NCBI GenBank assembly: GCA_018396995.1
Contig: JAGTQB010000001.1
Coordinates: forward strand, 67,584 to 131,583
Reading direction: 5' to 3'
Length of the DNA stretch: 64,000 nucleotides
Origin: Candidatus Bathyarchaeota archaeon
GTDB lineage: Archaea > Thermoproteota > Bathyarchaeia > Bathyarchaeales > DTEX01
In this document: in pieces, positions 7,189 through 52,527 of the stretch
Numbering within the stretch: the first letter of the stretch is position 1
How the letters are laid out: each line of letters begins with the position of its first letter
Made by a program: the position numbers and the translations under genes
The notes under the pieces: generated by a model
What the model was told of the DNA's origin: nothing
What the model saw: the letters and a program-made list of their open reading frames with translations, nothing else
Database searches by the model: none

Positions 7189-7322
7189 AATCGTTATTTC
7201 AAGAAATAATTATATTTTTCTTTCCGCTCCTCTAATATTTTATCTAAATTGTGGTGATGGAAAAGGCTGGGTGATGGTGGAGGGCGAGTTTTCTGGGAGG
7301 AGCCAATGCTGAGGGAGTTAGG

Positions 7323-9272
7323 ATAGGCGTATATGTATGCCACTGCGGTGTAAATATTGCTGGTGTAATTAATGTAAAGAAAGTTACTGAGTACGCACGT
7401 AATCTCCCAAACGTTATTATAGCCAAGGATCACCTATACCTCTGTTCAGATGCAGGTCAAGCGCTAATTAAGCAGGATATAAAAGAGTATGGGTTAAACC
7501 GCGTGGTTGTCGCCGCCTGCTCACCAAATCTTCACGAACAAACTTTTCGCAAGTGTATAGAAGATGCTGGGTTAAATAAATACCTGCTTGCCATGGCAAA
7601 CATTAGAGAACACTGCTCATGGGTGCATGAAAGCTGGCCTAAAGAGGCGACTGAGAAGGCTATTGATGCTGTTAGGATGGCTGTGGCCCGCGCCAACCTG
7701 CTTGAGCCCCTAGAAACAATTAAAGTCCCCGTTAAGAGAAGTTGCCTAGTGATTGGCGGGGGGATAGCTGGTATCCAAGCAGCTTTAGACCTCGCGAATG
7801 AAGGATTTGATGTTTACTTAGTTGAGAAGGAGCCAAGCATCGGGGGCCTCATGGCAAAATTTGATAAAACTTTCCCAACAATGGATTGCTCAATGTGCAT
7901 ATTATCCCCAAAGATGGCTGAGGTAATGCACCACCCAAAGATCCACCTCTTAACAAATGCTGAAGTCAAGACGGTTTCAGGCTTCATCGGTAATTTTAAA
8001 GTTGAGATCGAGATAAAACCACGGTATATTATAAGCGAAATCTGCAATGGTTGTGGGGAGTGCGTTAAAGTATGTCCTATTGAGGTTCCAAGCGAATTTG
8101 ATGAGAGACTTGGGCCTAGAAAAGCTATATTCGTCCCATTTCCCCAAGCCGTTCCCCTAATCTACATTATTGACATCGAAAATTGCATTAAATGTTACAA
8201 ATGTGTTGACGCTTGCGTGCAAGCGCGCGGGGCTAAAGCAATAGATTTTGCTCAGGAGCCAAAGAGGATGGAGATTGAAGTTGGGACAATAATTGTGGCA
8301 ACTGGATGCAGCACATTTGACCCATCGATTTTAGAGGAATATGGTTATGGCACCTATGAAAACGTGGTTACCGCGCTAGAGTTTGAGAGAATCCTAGCCC
8401 CAACTGGGCCGACCAGGGGCGTGATTTTAAGGCCCTCGGATGGAAGGATCCCGAAGCGTATCGCGTTCGTCCAATGTGTTGGATCTAGGGATAAGAGGAC
8501 GAATATTTACTGTTCAAGGGTCTGCTGTATGTATGCCACAAAGCAGGCTCTGTTAATCAAGGAGAGAATCCCAGACGCTAAGGTGACGATCTTTTACATT
8601 GATATGAGAGCCTTTGGGAAGGGGTTTGAAGAGTTTTATGCTAGGGCTCAGAGTGAAGGAGTATACTATATTAGAGGTAAGGTTGCAGAAATCATTGAAG
8701 ATCCAGGCACTAAAAATTTGAAGCTAGTTGCTGAGGACACCTTGTCCGGGGAGGTAATTGAGACTGAAGCAGACTTAGTGATTTTATCTATTGGGCTTAT
8801 TCCGTCAGCGTCGACGAAAGATTTGCGTGAAAGGATAGGTTTGTTGGTTGGACCTGACGGCTTCTTTAAGGAGGCGCATCCAAAACTAAGGCCTGTTGAC
8901 ACGATTGTCGATGGAATATTTATTGCGGGGGCTGCTCAGGGTCCAAAAGATATCTCGGACAGCGTCGCCCAAGCCAGTGCTGCAGCACAGAGAGCGAGCA
9001 TCCTCATGTCTACCGGAGAATTTGAGACGGAAGCAATAACCGCTAGAGTTAATGGCGATTTATGTAGTGGCTGCCTAATATGTGTTTCCATGTGCCCATT
9101 CAATGCGTTGGTTGTCGAGGGTAAGAACGTAAATGTTAACCAAATTCTTTGTAAGGGTTGTGGGGCCTGCGCTGCAGCATGCCCAGCTAAAGCCATAGAA
9201 ATAATGCATTTCAAAGATCAGCAAATCCTCGTTGAAATTAAGGCTCTTTTGGAAAATGTATCAAGGTTATAG
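7323..9272 (+). CDS. hdrA: Heterodisulfide reductase subunit A-like flavoprotein (HdrA, methanogen-type with N-terminal Cys domain); the start codon is unresolved
   Basis: The ORF track starts at GTG 7503, but the same frame is open from 7275. That upstream stretch encodes RIGVYVCHCGVNIAG...VVAACSPNLHE, the conserved HdrA N-terminal domain. It continues with the FAD fold VIGGGIAGIQAALDLA, an inserted ferredoxin domain (CNGCGECVKVCP, CIKCYKCVDAC) and a C-terminal 2x[4Fe-4S] (CSGCLICVSMCP, CKGCGACAAACP). The 5' end is placed at ATA 7323 only provisionally; the alternatives are CTG 7293 or a frameshift from ATG 7274. Confidence 0.85.
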   Translation: MGVYVCHCGVNIAGVINVKKVTEYARNLPNVIIAKDHLYLCSDAGQALIKQDIKEYGLNRVVVAACSPNLHEQTFRKCIEDAGLNKYLLAMANIREHCSWVHESWPKEATEKAIDAVRMAVARANLLEPLETIKVPVKRSCLVIGGGIAGIQAALDLANEGFDVYLVEKEPSIGGLMAKFDKTFPTMDCSMCILSPKMAEVMHHPKIHLLTNAEVKTVSGFIGNFKVEIEIKPRYIISEICNGCGECVKVCPIEVPSEFDERLGPRKAIFVPFPQAVPLIYIIDIENCIKCYKCVDACVQARGAKAIDFAQEPKRMEIEVGTIIVATGCSTFDPSILEEYGYGTYENVVTALEFERILAPTGPTRGVILRPSDGRIPKRIAFVQCVGSRDKRTNIYCSRVCCMYATKQALLIKERIPDAKVTIFYIDMRAFGKGFEEFYARAQSEGVYYIRGKVAEIIEDPGTKNLKLVAEDTLSGEVIETEADLVILSIGLIPSASTKDLRERIGLLVGPDGFFKEAHPKLRPVDTIVDGIFIAGAAQGPKDISDSVAQASAAAQRASILMSTGEFETEAITARVNGDLCSGCLICVSMCPFNALVVEGKNVNVNQILCKGCGACAAACPAKAIEIMHFKDQQILVEIKALLENVSRL

Positions 9273-41247: not shown

Positions 41248-41404
41248 TTCATCTCACCTTCAGCATGATTTAATATCGAGTATTATAGTTTATGGTTAAG
41301 AATATTAAAGTTACTTAAAGCTGACTGAAGGAAACTTTATTTAAGTTTCCTAACACTATTTATCTAAAAAACATATGTTAAGGGTGATTTAAACGAGGAC
41401 TGGT

Positions 41405-42220
41405 ATTGGACTAGTTGGTTGCGGCACAATAGGTAGCGTTGTTGCTGAGGCTATAGACGACGGGAAGATTGAGAACGCAAGTCTAATAATTATTTATGAT
41501 ATTGTTCCAGAGCATGCTGAAAAACTCGCCTCTAAATTGAAACGTAGACCCCTTATAGCAAGATCTTTAAGCGAGATTTTAGAGAGAAGTGATGTCCACA
41601 TCGTTGTTGAAGCAGCATCACAGGAATTTGTCAAAGAACATGCTGTCGAGATATTAAGCGGCAACAAAGACTTACTAATTATGAGCGTGGGCGCCCTACT
41701 AGATGAATCACTACTCTCCGAGATAATTGACGTCACCAGAAGAACTGGTAGGAAAGTTTATGTTCCATCCGGGGCCATCGTTGGCATAGATAATATTAAG
41801 TCCGCGGCACTAGGAAAGGTTGAGGAGGTAATTCTTGTAACTAGAAAACCTCCGGAAAGCTTTAGGGGAACTGATTTAATCGAGAAGAGTGGAATCGATA
41901 TTTCCTCAATAAAGGAGCCACTCCTTCTCTATGAGGGGCCAGCTCGTAAGGCTGTCGAAATACTCCCACAGAACATTAATGTTGCGGCCACTCTAAGCTT
42001 GGCTGGTATAGGGCCTGATAAAACAAAGGTTAGAGTTATAGCTGATCCGAAAATAAAGGATATAATCCATGAGGTCTATGTTAGGGGTGAGTTCGGAGAA
42101 ATGTATACTAGAACCGTAAATAAGCCCTTCCCAAGCAATCCTAGAACAAGCTATATTGCAGCCCTTTCTGCCATAGCAACCCTAAAAAGAATAACTAGTA
42201 ATATGCTCATCGGTACATAG
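41405..42220 (+). CDS. nadX: L-aspartate dehydrogenase (NadX); the start codon is unresolved
   Basis: The track ORF starts at TTG 41537. The same frame is open from 41393 and encodes TGIGLVGCGTIGSVVAEAI..., the Rossmann GxGxxG of NadX. Later blocks are VVEAASQEFVKEH, VPSGAI.G.D, NVAATL and HEV.VRGEFGEM....N.P...NP.TS. The 5' end is placed at ATT 41405 provisionally. Confidence 0.8.
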   Translation: MGLVGCGTIGSVVAEAIDDGKIENASLIIIYDIVPEHAEKLASKLKRRPLIARSLSEILERSDVHIVVEAASQEFVKEHAVEILSGNKDLLIMSVGALLDESLLSEIIDVTRRTGRKVYVPSGAIVGIDNIKSAALGKVEEVILVTRKPPESFRGTDLIEKSGIDISSIKEPLLLYEGPARKAVEILPQNINVAATLSLAGIGPDKTKVRVIADPKIKDIIHEVYVRGEFGEMYTRTVNKPFPSNPRTSYIAALSAIATLKRITSNMLIGT

Positions 42221-45664: not shown

Positions 45665-45796
45665 TGGTGGATTGCCGGCCAAAGGGCGCGGGAACCACCC
45701 AAACCCATTCCGAACTTGGAAGTTAAACCGCGCTCCGTCCCCGGTTTTAGTGGGGTCTTCGGCCCCGCGAAGCTGGGGAAGCTGGCAATCCACCAT
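45665..45796 (+). rRNA. rrf: 5S ribosomal RNA (not linked to 16S/23S)
   Basis: The terminal helix pairs TGGTGGATTGCC with GGCAATCCACCA. Internal conserved blocks are CCCATTCCGAACTTGGAAGTTAAAC and GTGGGG...CCCC...AAGCTGGG. Confidence 0.9.
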
Positions 45797-45800
45797 TTAT

Positions 45801-46112
45801 CTATTCTTTCTCTCCCTCAAGAAGCCATTTTAGAGGTATATCTTGGTAAGTTCCATCCGGGAGAGTTCTACGGATTGTTATTGGAAGGACACCCCGTTTT
45901 AGCTCTTCAAGAGCAATATCTACTGGACTCTTCATATTCTCTTTAACTTCTACCAGAATGGGAGCGCCCATAGCTATCTGTAGCGCCCTTGCACCAACAA
46001 TCCTAGCTTTTTCAAAGCGAGTGAGCTTTGGTGGACCAATTAAAACTCTCCTTTTACTTTCAGCGTATAAGTTCTTGATCTCCTGAGATTCTTGGAATGA
46101 AGAGCTAATAAT
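45801..46112 (-). CDS. rpoK: DNA-directed RNA polymerase subunit Rpo6 (RpoK); the start codon is unresolved
   Basis: It is not in the ORF track. Reverse translation gives [54 protein letters not shown]...[25 protein letters not shown]..., the Rpo6/omega-like core. The frame is open only from 46121 and has no ATG/GTG/TTG before the conserved LTRFEKAR block. ATT ATT (46112-46107) follows TAAGGAGGAGGG. Confidence 0.8.
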
Positions 46113-46278
46113 CCCTCCTCCTTATTAAGATCTCACCTTAGGAATTAAGTTTTTTAAGCGACTTAATATATTTGATGCACACTAAAACATTTAAAGTAAA
46201 TATAAATTTTACGATGTTTACTAGCTTACTTAGGCATGATAAAGGTTTAAATGTCACGGCTATTATCGCTATTAAGGG

Positions 46279-50720: not shown

Positions 50721-51293
50721 TTAAAATAACCTTATGACTTTTTTCCCTCTTGCCTGCGGGATAACCTTTATCCTAGCATTCTCAAATTCTCTTTTGAGTT
50801 CTTCTCCCATATATAGTTCATGTAGGAAAACGCTTAGAGCTCCGACCTCAGAATGCGGTTGCAGGGTTATTGAGACATTCCAGTCAGCGAGATCGTAGAC
50901 TAATCTCGGAACCTTTTCTCCCCCAACAATGATAAGTTTATCCTTTTTAGACTTCCTTATTTCTTGAATGACTTCATTTAATGGTAAACCATACATTGTT
51001 AAATGTATAGCCTCGCCACCCATCTTTTTCCACTCTCTTATCTTTTTGACCCACTCCTCAACATACTCTATACTGAAAGGGCCTCCCCACGACTCCACGA
51101 CTTTTCTAATACTCGCCTCAACTTTCTCATCCTTTTGCCCACTATAAAATGCTCCGTGAGCACCAAATGCTCTAGCGACAAGAAAAACATGTGTTGTAAT
51201 GCGCTTATCCCTCTCAGGTCTATGCCCAAGTCTAAGGACAAAAACCTTCCAACTATGTTGATGACACAATTTTTCCACCGACTCTTTCAACAA
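50721..51293 (-). CDS. tRNA (cytidine56-2'-O)-methyltransferase aTrm56
   Basis: It has VLRLGHRPERDKRITTHV.LVARAFGA, WGGPF, HLTMYG, IIVGGEKVP, QPHSEV.AL and IPQARGKKV. The true start is probably TTG 51269. Confidence 0.9.
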   Translation of the reverse strand: MLKESVEKLCHQHSWKVFVLRLGHRPERDKRITTHVFLVARAFGAHGAFYSGQKDEKVEASIRKVVESWGGPFSIEYVEEWVKKIREWKKMGGEAIHLTMYGLPLNEVIQEIRKSKKDKLIIVGGEKVPRLVYDLADWNVSITLQPHSEVGALSVFLHELYMGEELKREFENARIKVIPQARGKKVIRLF

Positions 51294-52512
51294 GCGCCAT
51301 AATCTTCTCTATAAGATTCTGCGGCACACCAATGTATACTTTTAGAGAATCATTATCGTATCCTATTCTATGCACCTTCGTATTCTCATATATCCAAGAG
51401 AGGAGAGAAAATGATTCCTGTTGCAGGGGCATTGTTATAGTTAAATCCTCATACCTTTTAAGGGTCTTAGACATCTCCATTTTGAGTAAATCAAGGTTAA
51501 CCCCATATAAGGCTGATATTGGAACGAATTTTAAGTTCTTATAGGCTTCACTTAAATATGCGACCTTATGATACAATTCATCCTTCGATAATAAGTCGAT
51601 CTTATTTAATGCAACTATCATCGGTATCCCCATTGCATCTATCTTTCTCAACGCATCAAGAGAAGATGCAATTTTTCTCATAACCTCATCAATTGTCTCA
51701 CTTATATCGACTACTAATAAAATTAGATCAGAGCAAGTGATCTCTTCCAATGTTGAGTAAAAGGCTTCGATTAAGGTTATGGGCAAACGTTCTATGAAGC
51801 CTACAGTATCCGTAATGAAAGCCTTCTCACCAAAAATATCCATAACTCTTGTCGTTGTAGACAACGTTGTGAAGACCTCTGGTCCAGTTAGAACCTCCTC
51901 TCTTGTGAGGGCGTTAAAAAGCGTGCTCTTGCCAGAGTTAGTGTATCCTGCGAGTGATATGAGGGAAAGACCAAGCTCAGCCCTCCGCGCCCTATGAACC
52001 TGCCTTAACCTTCTAATCTCCTTAAGCTTCTCCTGTATTTTATGAATCCTCCTTTTAATCTCATTATAGTAGACATCTGCCTCATATTTGCCCAATCCAT
52101 GGAAGCCTGGTTGCTCGCCCATCTTAGCAAGCCTAACCTTCTCCCTGGCATGGGCTAGCTCATACTGCAGCCGTGCCAATTCAATTTGGAGTTTAGCCTC
52201 TTTAGTCGAAGCCCTCTTAACAAATATTTCAAGAATTAGCTGGAAGCGATCAATAACTTCTACATTAGTTGCTTTAGCAAGATTATATATTTGAATGACT
52301 TTAAGGTCATTACCAAAAATTATTTTCTCCGCCCCGAGATTCTTAACCATCTGGGTGAGCTCTTTAACCTTTCCCGGACCAATATTATAGCGTGGATGGG
52401 GGAACCTTGTCTGTTCAATAACTCCAACAACTTCGTAGCCAGCTGCCTCGGCTAAACTCTTAAGCTCCTCTATGCATGATTTCTCAAAGGGCCCTCTGCG
52501 ATAAACTAGAAT
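51253..52512 (-). CDS. hflX: GTPase HflX; the start codon is unresolved
   Basis: The track ORF begins at ATG 52350, but the frame is open up to 52527. That stretch encodes ARTRAILVYRRGPFEKSCIEELKSLAEAAGYEVVGVIEQTR...GPGKVKEL, the HflX N-terminal domain. The G domain follows: GYTNSGKSTLFN, DTVGF, NKID. The 5' end is set at ATT 52512 provisionally. Confidence 0.85.
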   Translation of the reverse strand: MLVYRRGPFEKSCIEELKSLAEAAGYEVVGVIEQTRFPHPRYNIGPGKVKELTQMVKNLGAEKIIFGNDLKVIQIYNLAKATNVEVIDRFQLILEIFVKRASTKEAKLQIELARLQYELAHAREKVRLAKMGEQPGFHGLGKYEADVYYNEIKRRIHKIQEKLKEIRRLRQVHRARRAELGLSLISLAGYTNSGKSTLFNALTREEVLTGPEVFTTLSTTTRVMDIFGEKAFITDTVGFIERLPITLIEAFYSTLEEITCSDLILLVVDISETIDEVMRKIASSLDALRKIDAMGIPMIVALNKIDLLSKDELYHKVAYLSEAYKNLKFVPISALYGVNLDLLKMEMSKTLKRYEDLTITMPLQQESFSLLSWIYENTKVHRIGYDNDSLKVYIGVPQNLIEKIMALVERVGGKIVSST

Positions 52513-52527
52513 CGCCCTAGTCCTAGC

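Follow-up and report, generated by a model that had tools for sequence, protein, structure and literature searches.

Where does translation of nadX begin in a genome that offers it no ordinary start codon? The stretch of DNA analysed here, referred to throughout as the window, comprises 64,000 nucleotides of a Candidatus Bathyarchaeota archaeon contig (JAGTQB010000001.1), and in the nadX frame it reads ATG (41375) TTA AGG GTG (41384) ATT TAA (41390) ACG (41393) AGG ACT GGT ATT (41405), followed by GGA CTA GTT GGT TGC GGC ACA ATA (41429) GGT. These letters, including the TAA at 41390, were re-read from the window and match those quoted in an initial annotation, which had pointed out that the nucleotide-binding motif is encoded upstream of any canonical start and had proposed ATT 41405 as the codon best placed to initiate. 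As it had also stated, the first ATG, GTG or TTG past the TAA is TTG 41537, located 48 codons on (227 amino acids in the ORF listing), and a start there would remove the GLVGCGTIG (GxGxxG) fingerprint together with most of the NAD-binding domain. The chance of 48 codons without ATG, GTG or TTG is roughly 0.95^48, or about 0.09, and is thus not rare; the significant point is that a conserved and selected domain lies inside a run free of canonical starts, and not the length of that run.

The nadX reading frame and the TAA that precedes it

The stop-to-stop translation of 41393-42217 (275 amino acids) is identified by profile searches as aspartate dehydrogenase. It matches NF009830 at 2.3e-89 (299.4 bits; curated cut-off 267) and TIGR03855 at 3.2e-76 (255.9 bits; curated cut-off 206.55), and it thus exceeds the curated cut-offs of both equivalog models of aspartate dehydrogenase (NadX). 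The Pfam domains NAD_binding_3 (PF03447) and Asp_DH_C (PF01958) occupy residues 9-125 and 173-261, respectively, and this two-domain AspDH architecture holds only if translation begins at or before 41417. The GCGTIG of the window aligns with GYGAIG in the A. fulgidus AspDH structure 2DC1, and the NF009830 profile starts one residue past the ACG, with query residue 5 corresponding to profile position 4. In the window nadX is flanked by an H+-PPase gene on one side and by a convergent methyltransferase gene on the other; in about 28 related loci nadC (QRPTase, 5e-58) comes after it. These nadC genes start with an ordinary ATG and, in a few cases, with ATT, ATC or ATA.

Public calls of nadX disagree with each other (227, 263 and 271 amino acids; Table 1), and none of them starts at ACG. 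To our knowledge, NCBI translation table 11 does not list ACG as a start, which would explain why no public call begins there. The consequences are not confined to this locus, in that among 124 inspected clusters of nadX-related proteins about 29 are devoid of the NAD-binding motif purely through the start call.

Given that close relatives carry TTA in place of the TAA and that a single T-to-A change at the boundary of a T/A run would suffice to produce it, one could argue that nadX is a decaying pseudogene and that its TAA stems from misassembly or from a recent nonsense mutation. The TAA, however, is found in the 90%-identity nadX protein cluster, which comprises 32 contigs from four data sources (NCBI, JGI, ENA and Logan). 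Its context is identical in L004, L005, L006, L009 and L010, which are independent assemblies distinct from one another by nearby SNPs, and it is present also in the diverged loci L007/L008, which originate from other samples. Between the window and L007 (dS 0.28), dN/dS is 0.115 across nadX, and in codons 1-48, that is, in the very segment between the TAA and TTG 41537 that a downstream start would discard, omega falls to 0.052 (10 synonymous and 2 non-synonymous differences). Since both sequences carry the TAA, purifying selection has continued to act on this segment with the TAA in place, and judged by this pattern of substitutions the region between the TAA and TTG 41537 is translated. With the reading frame unbroken over 275 codons, we regard an erroneous TAA or a dying gene as extremely improbable; neither of these two circumstances, which the initial annotation had singled out as capable of overturning its interpretation, is borne out.

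The closest relatives without the TAA (L001, L011 and L002; 75-76% amino acid identity) read GTG ATT TTA ACG at this place, which indicates that the window carries a TTA-to-TAA substitution; their gene callers take the GTG as the start. An alignment of orthologous 5' regions had been suggested as a way of finding either a sense codon at the position of the TAA or an ATG at that of the ATT. The former is what the relatives display; at the position of the ATT they mostly encode alanine or valine.

The ACG column across Bathyarchaeia

To place the 5' end of nadX in its family context, 79 metagenome nadX loci were fetched with peptide patterns representing the central and C-terminal portions of the protein, so that their retrieval imposed no selection on the 5' end. 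Combined with L001-L010, they yielded 65 distinct nadX 5' regions from Bathyarchaeia genomes and metagenomes, which were codon-aligned on the GxGxxG motif. The column containing the ACG of the window is ACG in 57 of these 65 regions and ATG in 7, with L012 having its ATG one codon later; ACA, ACC and ACT do not occur in it in any of the 65. In a further lineage (L052/L054) the column is occupied by AGG, and a TTG lies four codons upstream. The same sequences provide a control: five invariant internal threonine columns mix ACA, ACC, ACT and ACG, with ACG accounting for 6-35%, ACG makes up 23.8% of all 870 threonine codons of these nadX genes, and glycine columns nearby employ all four codons. 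A general reassignment of ACG was considered and rejected, because ACG swaps with other threonine codons at the invariant threonine columns.

The same column also marks where coding ends on the 5' side. An in-frame stop occurs one to three codons upstream of the ACG in 20 of the 57 loci (one codon in 3, two in 10 and three in 7), and none occurs downstream of it among the nadX loci aligned. No conservation is seen in the codons that separate the stop from the ACG, and the codon that follows the ACG specifies lysine or arginine and varies synonymously. In 34 of the 57 ACG loci, ATG, GTG and TTG are altogether absent from the interval that extends from the upstream stop to the GxGxxG motif, and in 22 others the canonical codons upstream are scattered in position, although in these 22 an open in-frame ATG, GTG or TTG could be usable in the organisms concerned. 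A neighbor-joining tree has ACG in each of the major clades and ATG nested in four separate places. To delimit coding, to be constrained at the level of nucleotides and to swap only with ATG are the marks of a start codon. The alignment thus shows that the ACG column is constrained in its nucleotides, that it corresponds by homology to ATG starts and that it forms the 5' limit of coding. The best explanation, and in view of the strong comparative evidence quite a probable one, is that ACG 41393 is the start codon of nadX. If so, the initial annotation was right in that the gene begins just past the TAA at a codon other than ATG, GTG or TTG, and wrong in its choice of ATT.

The features of the leader preceding the ACG are listed in Table 1. 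A BRE/TATA-like element is conserved upstream, and in other loci similar gaaaatcttatttaa elements precede the ACG by 45-55 nt. The usual archaeal distance between TATA element and transcription start would place the 5' end of the transcript near 41366-41368, which predicts a leader of about 25 nt. Within this leader, GGTGAT is followed by the four nucleotides TTAA and then by ACG, so that the RNA reads AAGGGUGAUUUAA-ACG-AGGACU. In the P. abyssi aEF1A mRNA, which has served for structures of archaeal initiation complexes, the start region reads GGAGGUGAU-UUAA-AUG (PMC6237735); the leader core GGUGAU-UUAA immediately before the start codon is identical in the two, and they differ in that the P-site codon is AUG there and ACG in nadX. 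Comparable spacing is seen in other genes of the window, whose ATG is preceded at 5-9 nt by GGTGA or GGAGG, and a G-rich element holds the Shine-Dalgarno (SD) position in all nadX loci, including a large sediment clade, in which AGCTGGGAT stands in place of a textbook SD and the positioning of the ribosome is less clear. No complement of AGCTGGGAT was detected within -300..+400. The geometry of GGTGAT suggests that GTG 41384 is part of the SD core and that TAA 41390 is part of the spacer.

Table 1. Coordinates of the nadX start region and of the start codons proposed for it (positions in the window)
Feature	Position	Strand	Basis or remarks
BRE/TATA-like element GGAAAC-TTTATTTAAG	41330..41345	+	conserved in L001, L002, L004-L010
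Mini-ORF ATG TTA AGG GTG ATT TAA (MLRVI*)	41375..41392	+	in leader; window clade and L007/L008 only
Shine-Dalgarno-like GGGTGAT (core GGTGAT, 41383-41388)	41382..41388	+	spacing; contains GTG 41384
TAA	41390..41392	+	read as SD-to-start spacer, not as coding interruption; from TTA in relatives; spacer codons vary
ACG, proposed nadX initiation codon	41393..41395	+	57/65 ACG, 7 ATG, no other Thr codon
nadX coding sequence, as proposed	41393..42220	+	275 codons plus TAG stop; family match, dN/dS
ATT start	41405..41407	+	271-aa NCBI records (P0121) and initial annotation; start unsupported
GxGxxG dinucleotide-binding motif (GCGTIG)	41417..41434	+	GGT TGC GGC ACA ATA GGT
ATA start	41429..41431	+	263-aa NCBI records (P0001); inside GxGxxG, implausible
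TTG, first canonical start	41537..41539	+	JGI, ENA and Logan calls, 227 aa (P0122-P0124)

We thus propose the following sequence of events. The nadX mRNA would probably be transcribed from the BRE/TATA-like element with its short leader, and GGTGAT would position the small ribosomal subunit such that ACG, four nucleotides past it, comes to lie where AUG normally stands, with the apparent "stop" being no more than a part of the intervening TTAA. Initiator Met-tRNA would then most likely decode ACG as near-cognate in spite of the mismatched middle base, giving a product with the predicted N-terminus M-R-T-G-I-G-L-V-G-C-G-T-I-G and the peptide (M)RTGIGLVGCGTIGSVVAEAIDDGK. Initiation at ACG would be expected to be inefficient, and the weak start would presumably hold NadX synthesis low or conditional. 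A point that speaks against the proposal is that aIF1 has been reported to select against starts that are not canonical. TAA 41390, GTG 41384 and ATG 41375 would all belong to the leader and lie outside nadX. That ACG is kept in every major clade, even though one C-to-T change would convert it to ATG, makes the weak start look selected, and nadX looks like an intact and expressed gene whose weak ACG start is maintained by selection.

Alternative accounts of nadX initiation

It is conceivable that initiation occurs at a near-cognate codon downstream of the ACG, that is, at ATT 41405 or ATA 41429, both ATT and ATA being accepted table 11 starts. The initial annotation correctly placed ATT 6 nt after a GAGG (41395-41398), a workable spacing, and with 2DC1 beginning just two residues before the position aligned with ATT, a protein started there could still fold; the solved AspDH structures do not discriminate ACG from ATT. 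The codon itself, however, argues otherwise. It is ATC in L007/L008, and in relatives its column is occupied by GCT (21), GCC (8), GTC (6), GTT (6), GCA (6), GCG (6), GTA (5) and ATT (3); with alanine or valine there in most of them, ATT cannot be the start of the family. The residues from ACG to ATT, moreover, evolve as coding sequence, in that L001 and L002 have AGA or AAG in place of AGG and the column encodes lysine or arginine family-wide, and the ATA lies within the GxGxxG motif. Finally, a downstream start leaves both the invariance of the ACG and its alternation with ATG unexplained. We consider such a start quite unlikely as the principal one, while in this genome ATT 41405 could still act as a secondary start of minor use.

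The pattern of the ACG column fits near-cognate decoding and RNA editing of the C alike. If C-to-U editing of the mRNA turned the genomic ACG into AUG, initiation would be canonical, the strict retention of ACG over other near-cognate codons would follow naturally, and the C/T exchange that alone distinguishes ACG from the ATG of relatives would have its counterpart in plant chloroplasts and mitochondria, where a genomic ACG likewise occupies exactly the ATG position of orthologues. We know, however, of no C-to-U editing of mRNA in archaea, be it a machinery or a precedent. Neither a guiding structure nor a flanking motif was found for it: no conserved RNA fold was detected around the nadX start (-30..+60 in 63 loci; mean z -0.27), and the motif upstream is without a partner. 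The 90%-identity protein cluster furthermore contains only 263-, 271- and 227-amino-acid calls and no 275-amino-acid form, which an assembled transcript bearing ATG would yield, although this weighs little, as few of its samples are transcriptomes. Taking these points together, we deem editing improbable. An Rfam scan of the window returned 5S rRNA only, and no special tRNA was detected in the window.

As the mini-ORF is in frame with nadX and its stop abuts the ACG, translation might also start at ATG 41375 or GTG 41384 and then proceed past the TAA, either by readthrough or by termination followed by reinitiation; in archaea, termination-reinitiation at very short distances is known (PMC10666635). 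The initial annotation had treated this mini-ORF as a meaningful pattern. Its ATG, however, is missing in L001, L011 and L023, which makes the MLRVI mini-ORF look incidental, and no conserved upstream ORF was found across 65 nadX loci. The upstream stops vary in kind (TAA, TGA and TAG) as well as in distance (1-10 codons), the 34 loci mentioned above have no canonical upstream start before the nearest stop, and GTG 41384 is accounted for as part of GGTGAT. Programmed readthrough was hence dismissed, with upstream starts absent or scattered, a stop that is not fixed and an upstream sequence that is not conserved as protein, and so was uORF coupling, given the limited occurrence of the mini-ORF (Table 1); we hold either to be very improbable. 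A -1 frameshift at the TTTAAAC-like string near the TAA was discarded as well, as the shifted frame misses that of nadX and no upstream ATG is available to it. Direct initiation at ACG 41393 remains our preferred reading of the locus.

Comparison with known starts and with other genes of the window

Examples of initiation at ACG are on record for eukaryotes and their viruses, while in plant organelles ACG is edited to AUG. With the former (AAV capsid VP2, the plant GGP uORF and polerovirus P3a), the proposed nadX start would have in common that it is conserved and presumably inefficient, that it is decoded by initiator Met-tRNA and that a weak start kept by selection sets dosage; archaeal start selection, in addition, uses the eukaryote-type factors aIF1, aIF1A and aIF2. 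It would differ in that start codons are found there by scanning and Kozak context, whereas in nadX an SD-like element lies 4-6 nt upstream, and in that nadX is an archaeal housekeeping biosynthetic gene. The non-canonical starts of table 11 (E. coli infC AUU, AUA, AUC, CUG) resemble it in being positioned by an SD, in lowering efficiency and in being conserved in orthologues. Their mismatch with AUG, however, falls on the first or the third base, and that of the nadX ACG on the middle one; nor is an autoregulatory loop evident for nadX. Neither for archaea in general nor for Bathyarchaeota did our literature search turn up an account of ACG starts, and such starts are absent from the text of a 2021 review of archaeal recoding. 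What we rate as new here is thus a candidate SD-guided, class-wide and selected near-cognate start codon in archaea that deviates from AUG at its middle base.

If the ACG is genuine and selected in the whole class, the start set of table 11 would be incomplete for archaea and annotation would fail predictably at genes of this kind. Furthermore, SD-guided initiation in archaea would be linked, via the shared factors, to the near-cognate initiation that has been studied in eukaryotes, and the nadX leader, nearly identical as it is to a P. abyssi model mRNA, would offer a natural substrate for studying the fidelity of start codons by structural and biochemical means. Weak starts kept for so long on nadX and hflX would also suggest that NAD synthesis and ribosome-rescue capacity are regulated at the initiation step.

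Is nadX alone in this respect? The initial annotation had likened it to hdrA, rpo6 and hflX, and the comparison holds insofar as all of them are without canonical starts, whereas the upstream mini-ORFs that it had noted there are not conserved. The hflX gene of the window (51253-52527, minus strand) offers no canonical start before its conserved N-terminus, and many hflX gene calls in Bathyarchaeia are truncated to 361-366 amino acids. Five hflX lineages lack a canonical start (L094-96, L097/98, L099/100, L101 and L102), and in all five one and the same column is always ACG, placed 8-10 nt after GGAGGA and, in L102, preceded by a stop two codons upstream. By this pattern, hflX is a second family that appears to use the combination of SD and ACG. 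In the window clade the column contains ACT, and an invariant AGG is found one codon upstream, 6 nt after GGAGGGG.

The rpoK frame (ORF from 46121, minus strand) opens with stop-GGAGGAGGG-ATT-ATT and has its first ATG inside the Rpb6 domain, an arrangement conserved in the 86%-identical copy of L103, and an hdrA-like gene (7275-9272) likewise appears to be without a canonical start. It is conceivable that Bathyarchaeia as a whole employ an expanded set of start codons (ACG and perhaps AGG, which deviate from AUG at the middle base, as well as AUU) for certain conserved housekeeping genes, namely nadX, hflX, rpoK and possibly hdrA, a proposal that we put forward tentatively and to which we give somewhat less than even chances. 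If it were true, weak starts would have been held by selection for hundreds of millions of years, archaea would possess a eukaryote-like control of start-codon stringency, possibly governed by aIF1, and a few percent of the public Bathyarchaeia proteins would have wrong N-termini, often ones that truncate a domain.

A pattern scan of the window for SD plus ACG at the 5' ends of ORFs gave a convincing result for nadX only, and among the flanking genes of 89 loci no clear new ACG-start family emerged, the clusters being mostly antisense shadow ORFs. Along the 21 kb over which the window and L103 are syntenic, nadX, rpoK and hflX are the only genes without canonical starts. The proteasome beta gene, which had been flagged by synteny, has a normal start consisting of an SD and TTG.

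Annotated N-termini of NadX

Among the 124 clusters of nadX-related proteins covered here (P0001-P0124), the NAD-binding motif GxGxxG is missing from about 29 (lengths 217-263 aa), a loss that is due purely to start-codon choice, and in about 17 further clusters, at 269 aa (L/M-IGCG...), the N-terminus falls within the first beta-strand. The NadX family is systematically mis-annotated at its N-termini.

The nadX upstream motif and gene neighbourhood

In about 30 related loci (L030-L086), the 9-nt motif AGCTGGGAT occupies positions -15 to -7 relative to the ACG proposed to start nadX, the aspartate dehydrogenase gene. Its spacing from the ACG is 6 nt in nearly all of them, whereas L046 and L082 have 4-5 nt. 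Read in codons, the motif gives S-W-D, with AGC, TGG and GAT used throughout these loci without any synonymous variation, and it is flanked by stops; its conservation is at the nucleotide level. The motif does not match a textbook Shine-Dalgarno (SD) element, and a complementary partner sought nearby was not found.

Since nadC (quinolinate phosphoribosyltransferase) directly follows nadX on the same strand in about 28 related loci, a nadX-nadC operon is suggested for many Bathyarchaeia. The window differs: there the neighbours of nadX are an H+-pyrophosphatase gene in divergent orientation and, in convergent orientation, a Methyltrn_RNA_3 gene, the 3' end of which overlaps nadX by 39 nt.

Start regions of hflX, rpoK and an hdrA-like gene

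Positions of features in the window, with related loci
Feature	Position	Strand	Remarks
hdrA-like gene	7275-9272	+	
5S rRNA gene	45671-45790	+	Rfam RF00001, 72 bits
rpoK/rpo6	45801-46121	-	counterpart in L103: 16131-16448
hflX	51253-52527	-	related loci L090-L102
nadC downstream of nadX	L064 2369 onward	same as nadX	example among about 28 loci

The conserved N-terminus of the window hflX, ARTRAILVYRRGPFEK, is preceded by no ATG, GTG or TTG, the first canonical start being an ATG at codon 59. In hflX of five other Bathyarchaeia lineages, an SD (GGAGGA) is accompanied by an invariant ACG at one column; ACT occupies this column in the window clade, where an invariant AGG stands one codon upstream of it, 6 nt after GGAGGGG. 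AGG also fills the nadX start column, instead of ACG or ATG, in one lineage (L052/L054, 1477-1479), where a TTG precedes it by four codons. The two occurrences, taken jointly, hint that AGG may serve as a start as well.

The 5' end of rpoK in the window reads taa taa GGA GGA GGG ATT ATT AGC..., and its first ATG is codon 50, within the Rpb6 domain (Pfam residues 31-81). Because the stop-GGAGGAG-ATT-ATT layout is kept in the 86% identical copy of L103/L104, its start codon is probably ATT. Gene calls give rpoK as 54 aa in one assembly and omit it in the other. The 5S rRNA gene directly adjoins rpoK in the window.

In the stop-to-stop ORF of the hdrA-like gene, the first canonical start is a GTG at codon 76, and the conserved RIGVYVCHCGVNIAG begins ahead of it, near codon 16. 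An ACG candidate is absent from this 5' region; candidate starts are a CTG near 7296 and an ATA near 7323 after GAGGGAG. An in-frame ATG GAA AAG GCT GGG TGA is found a short way upstream.
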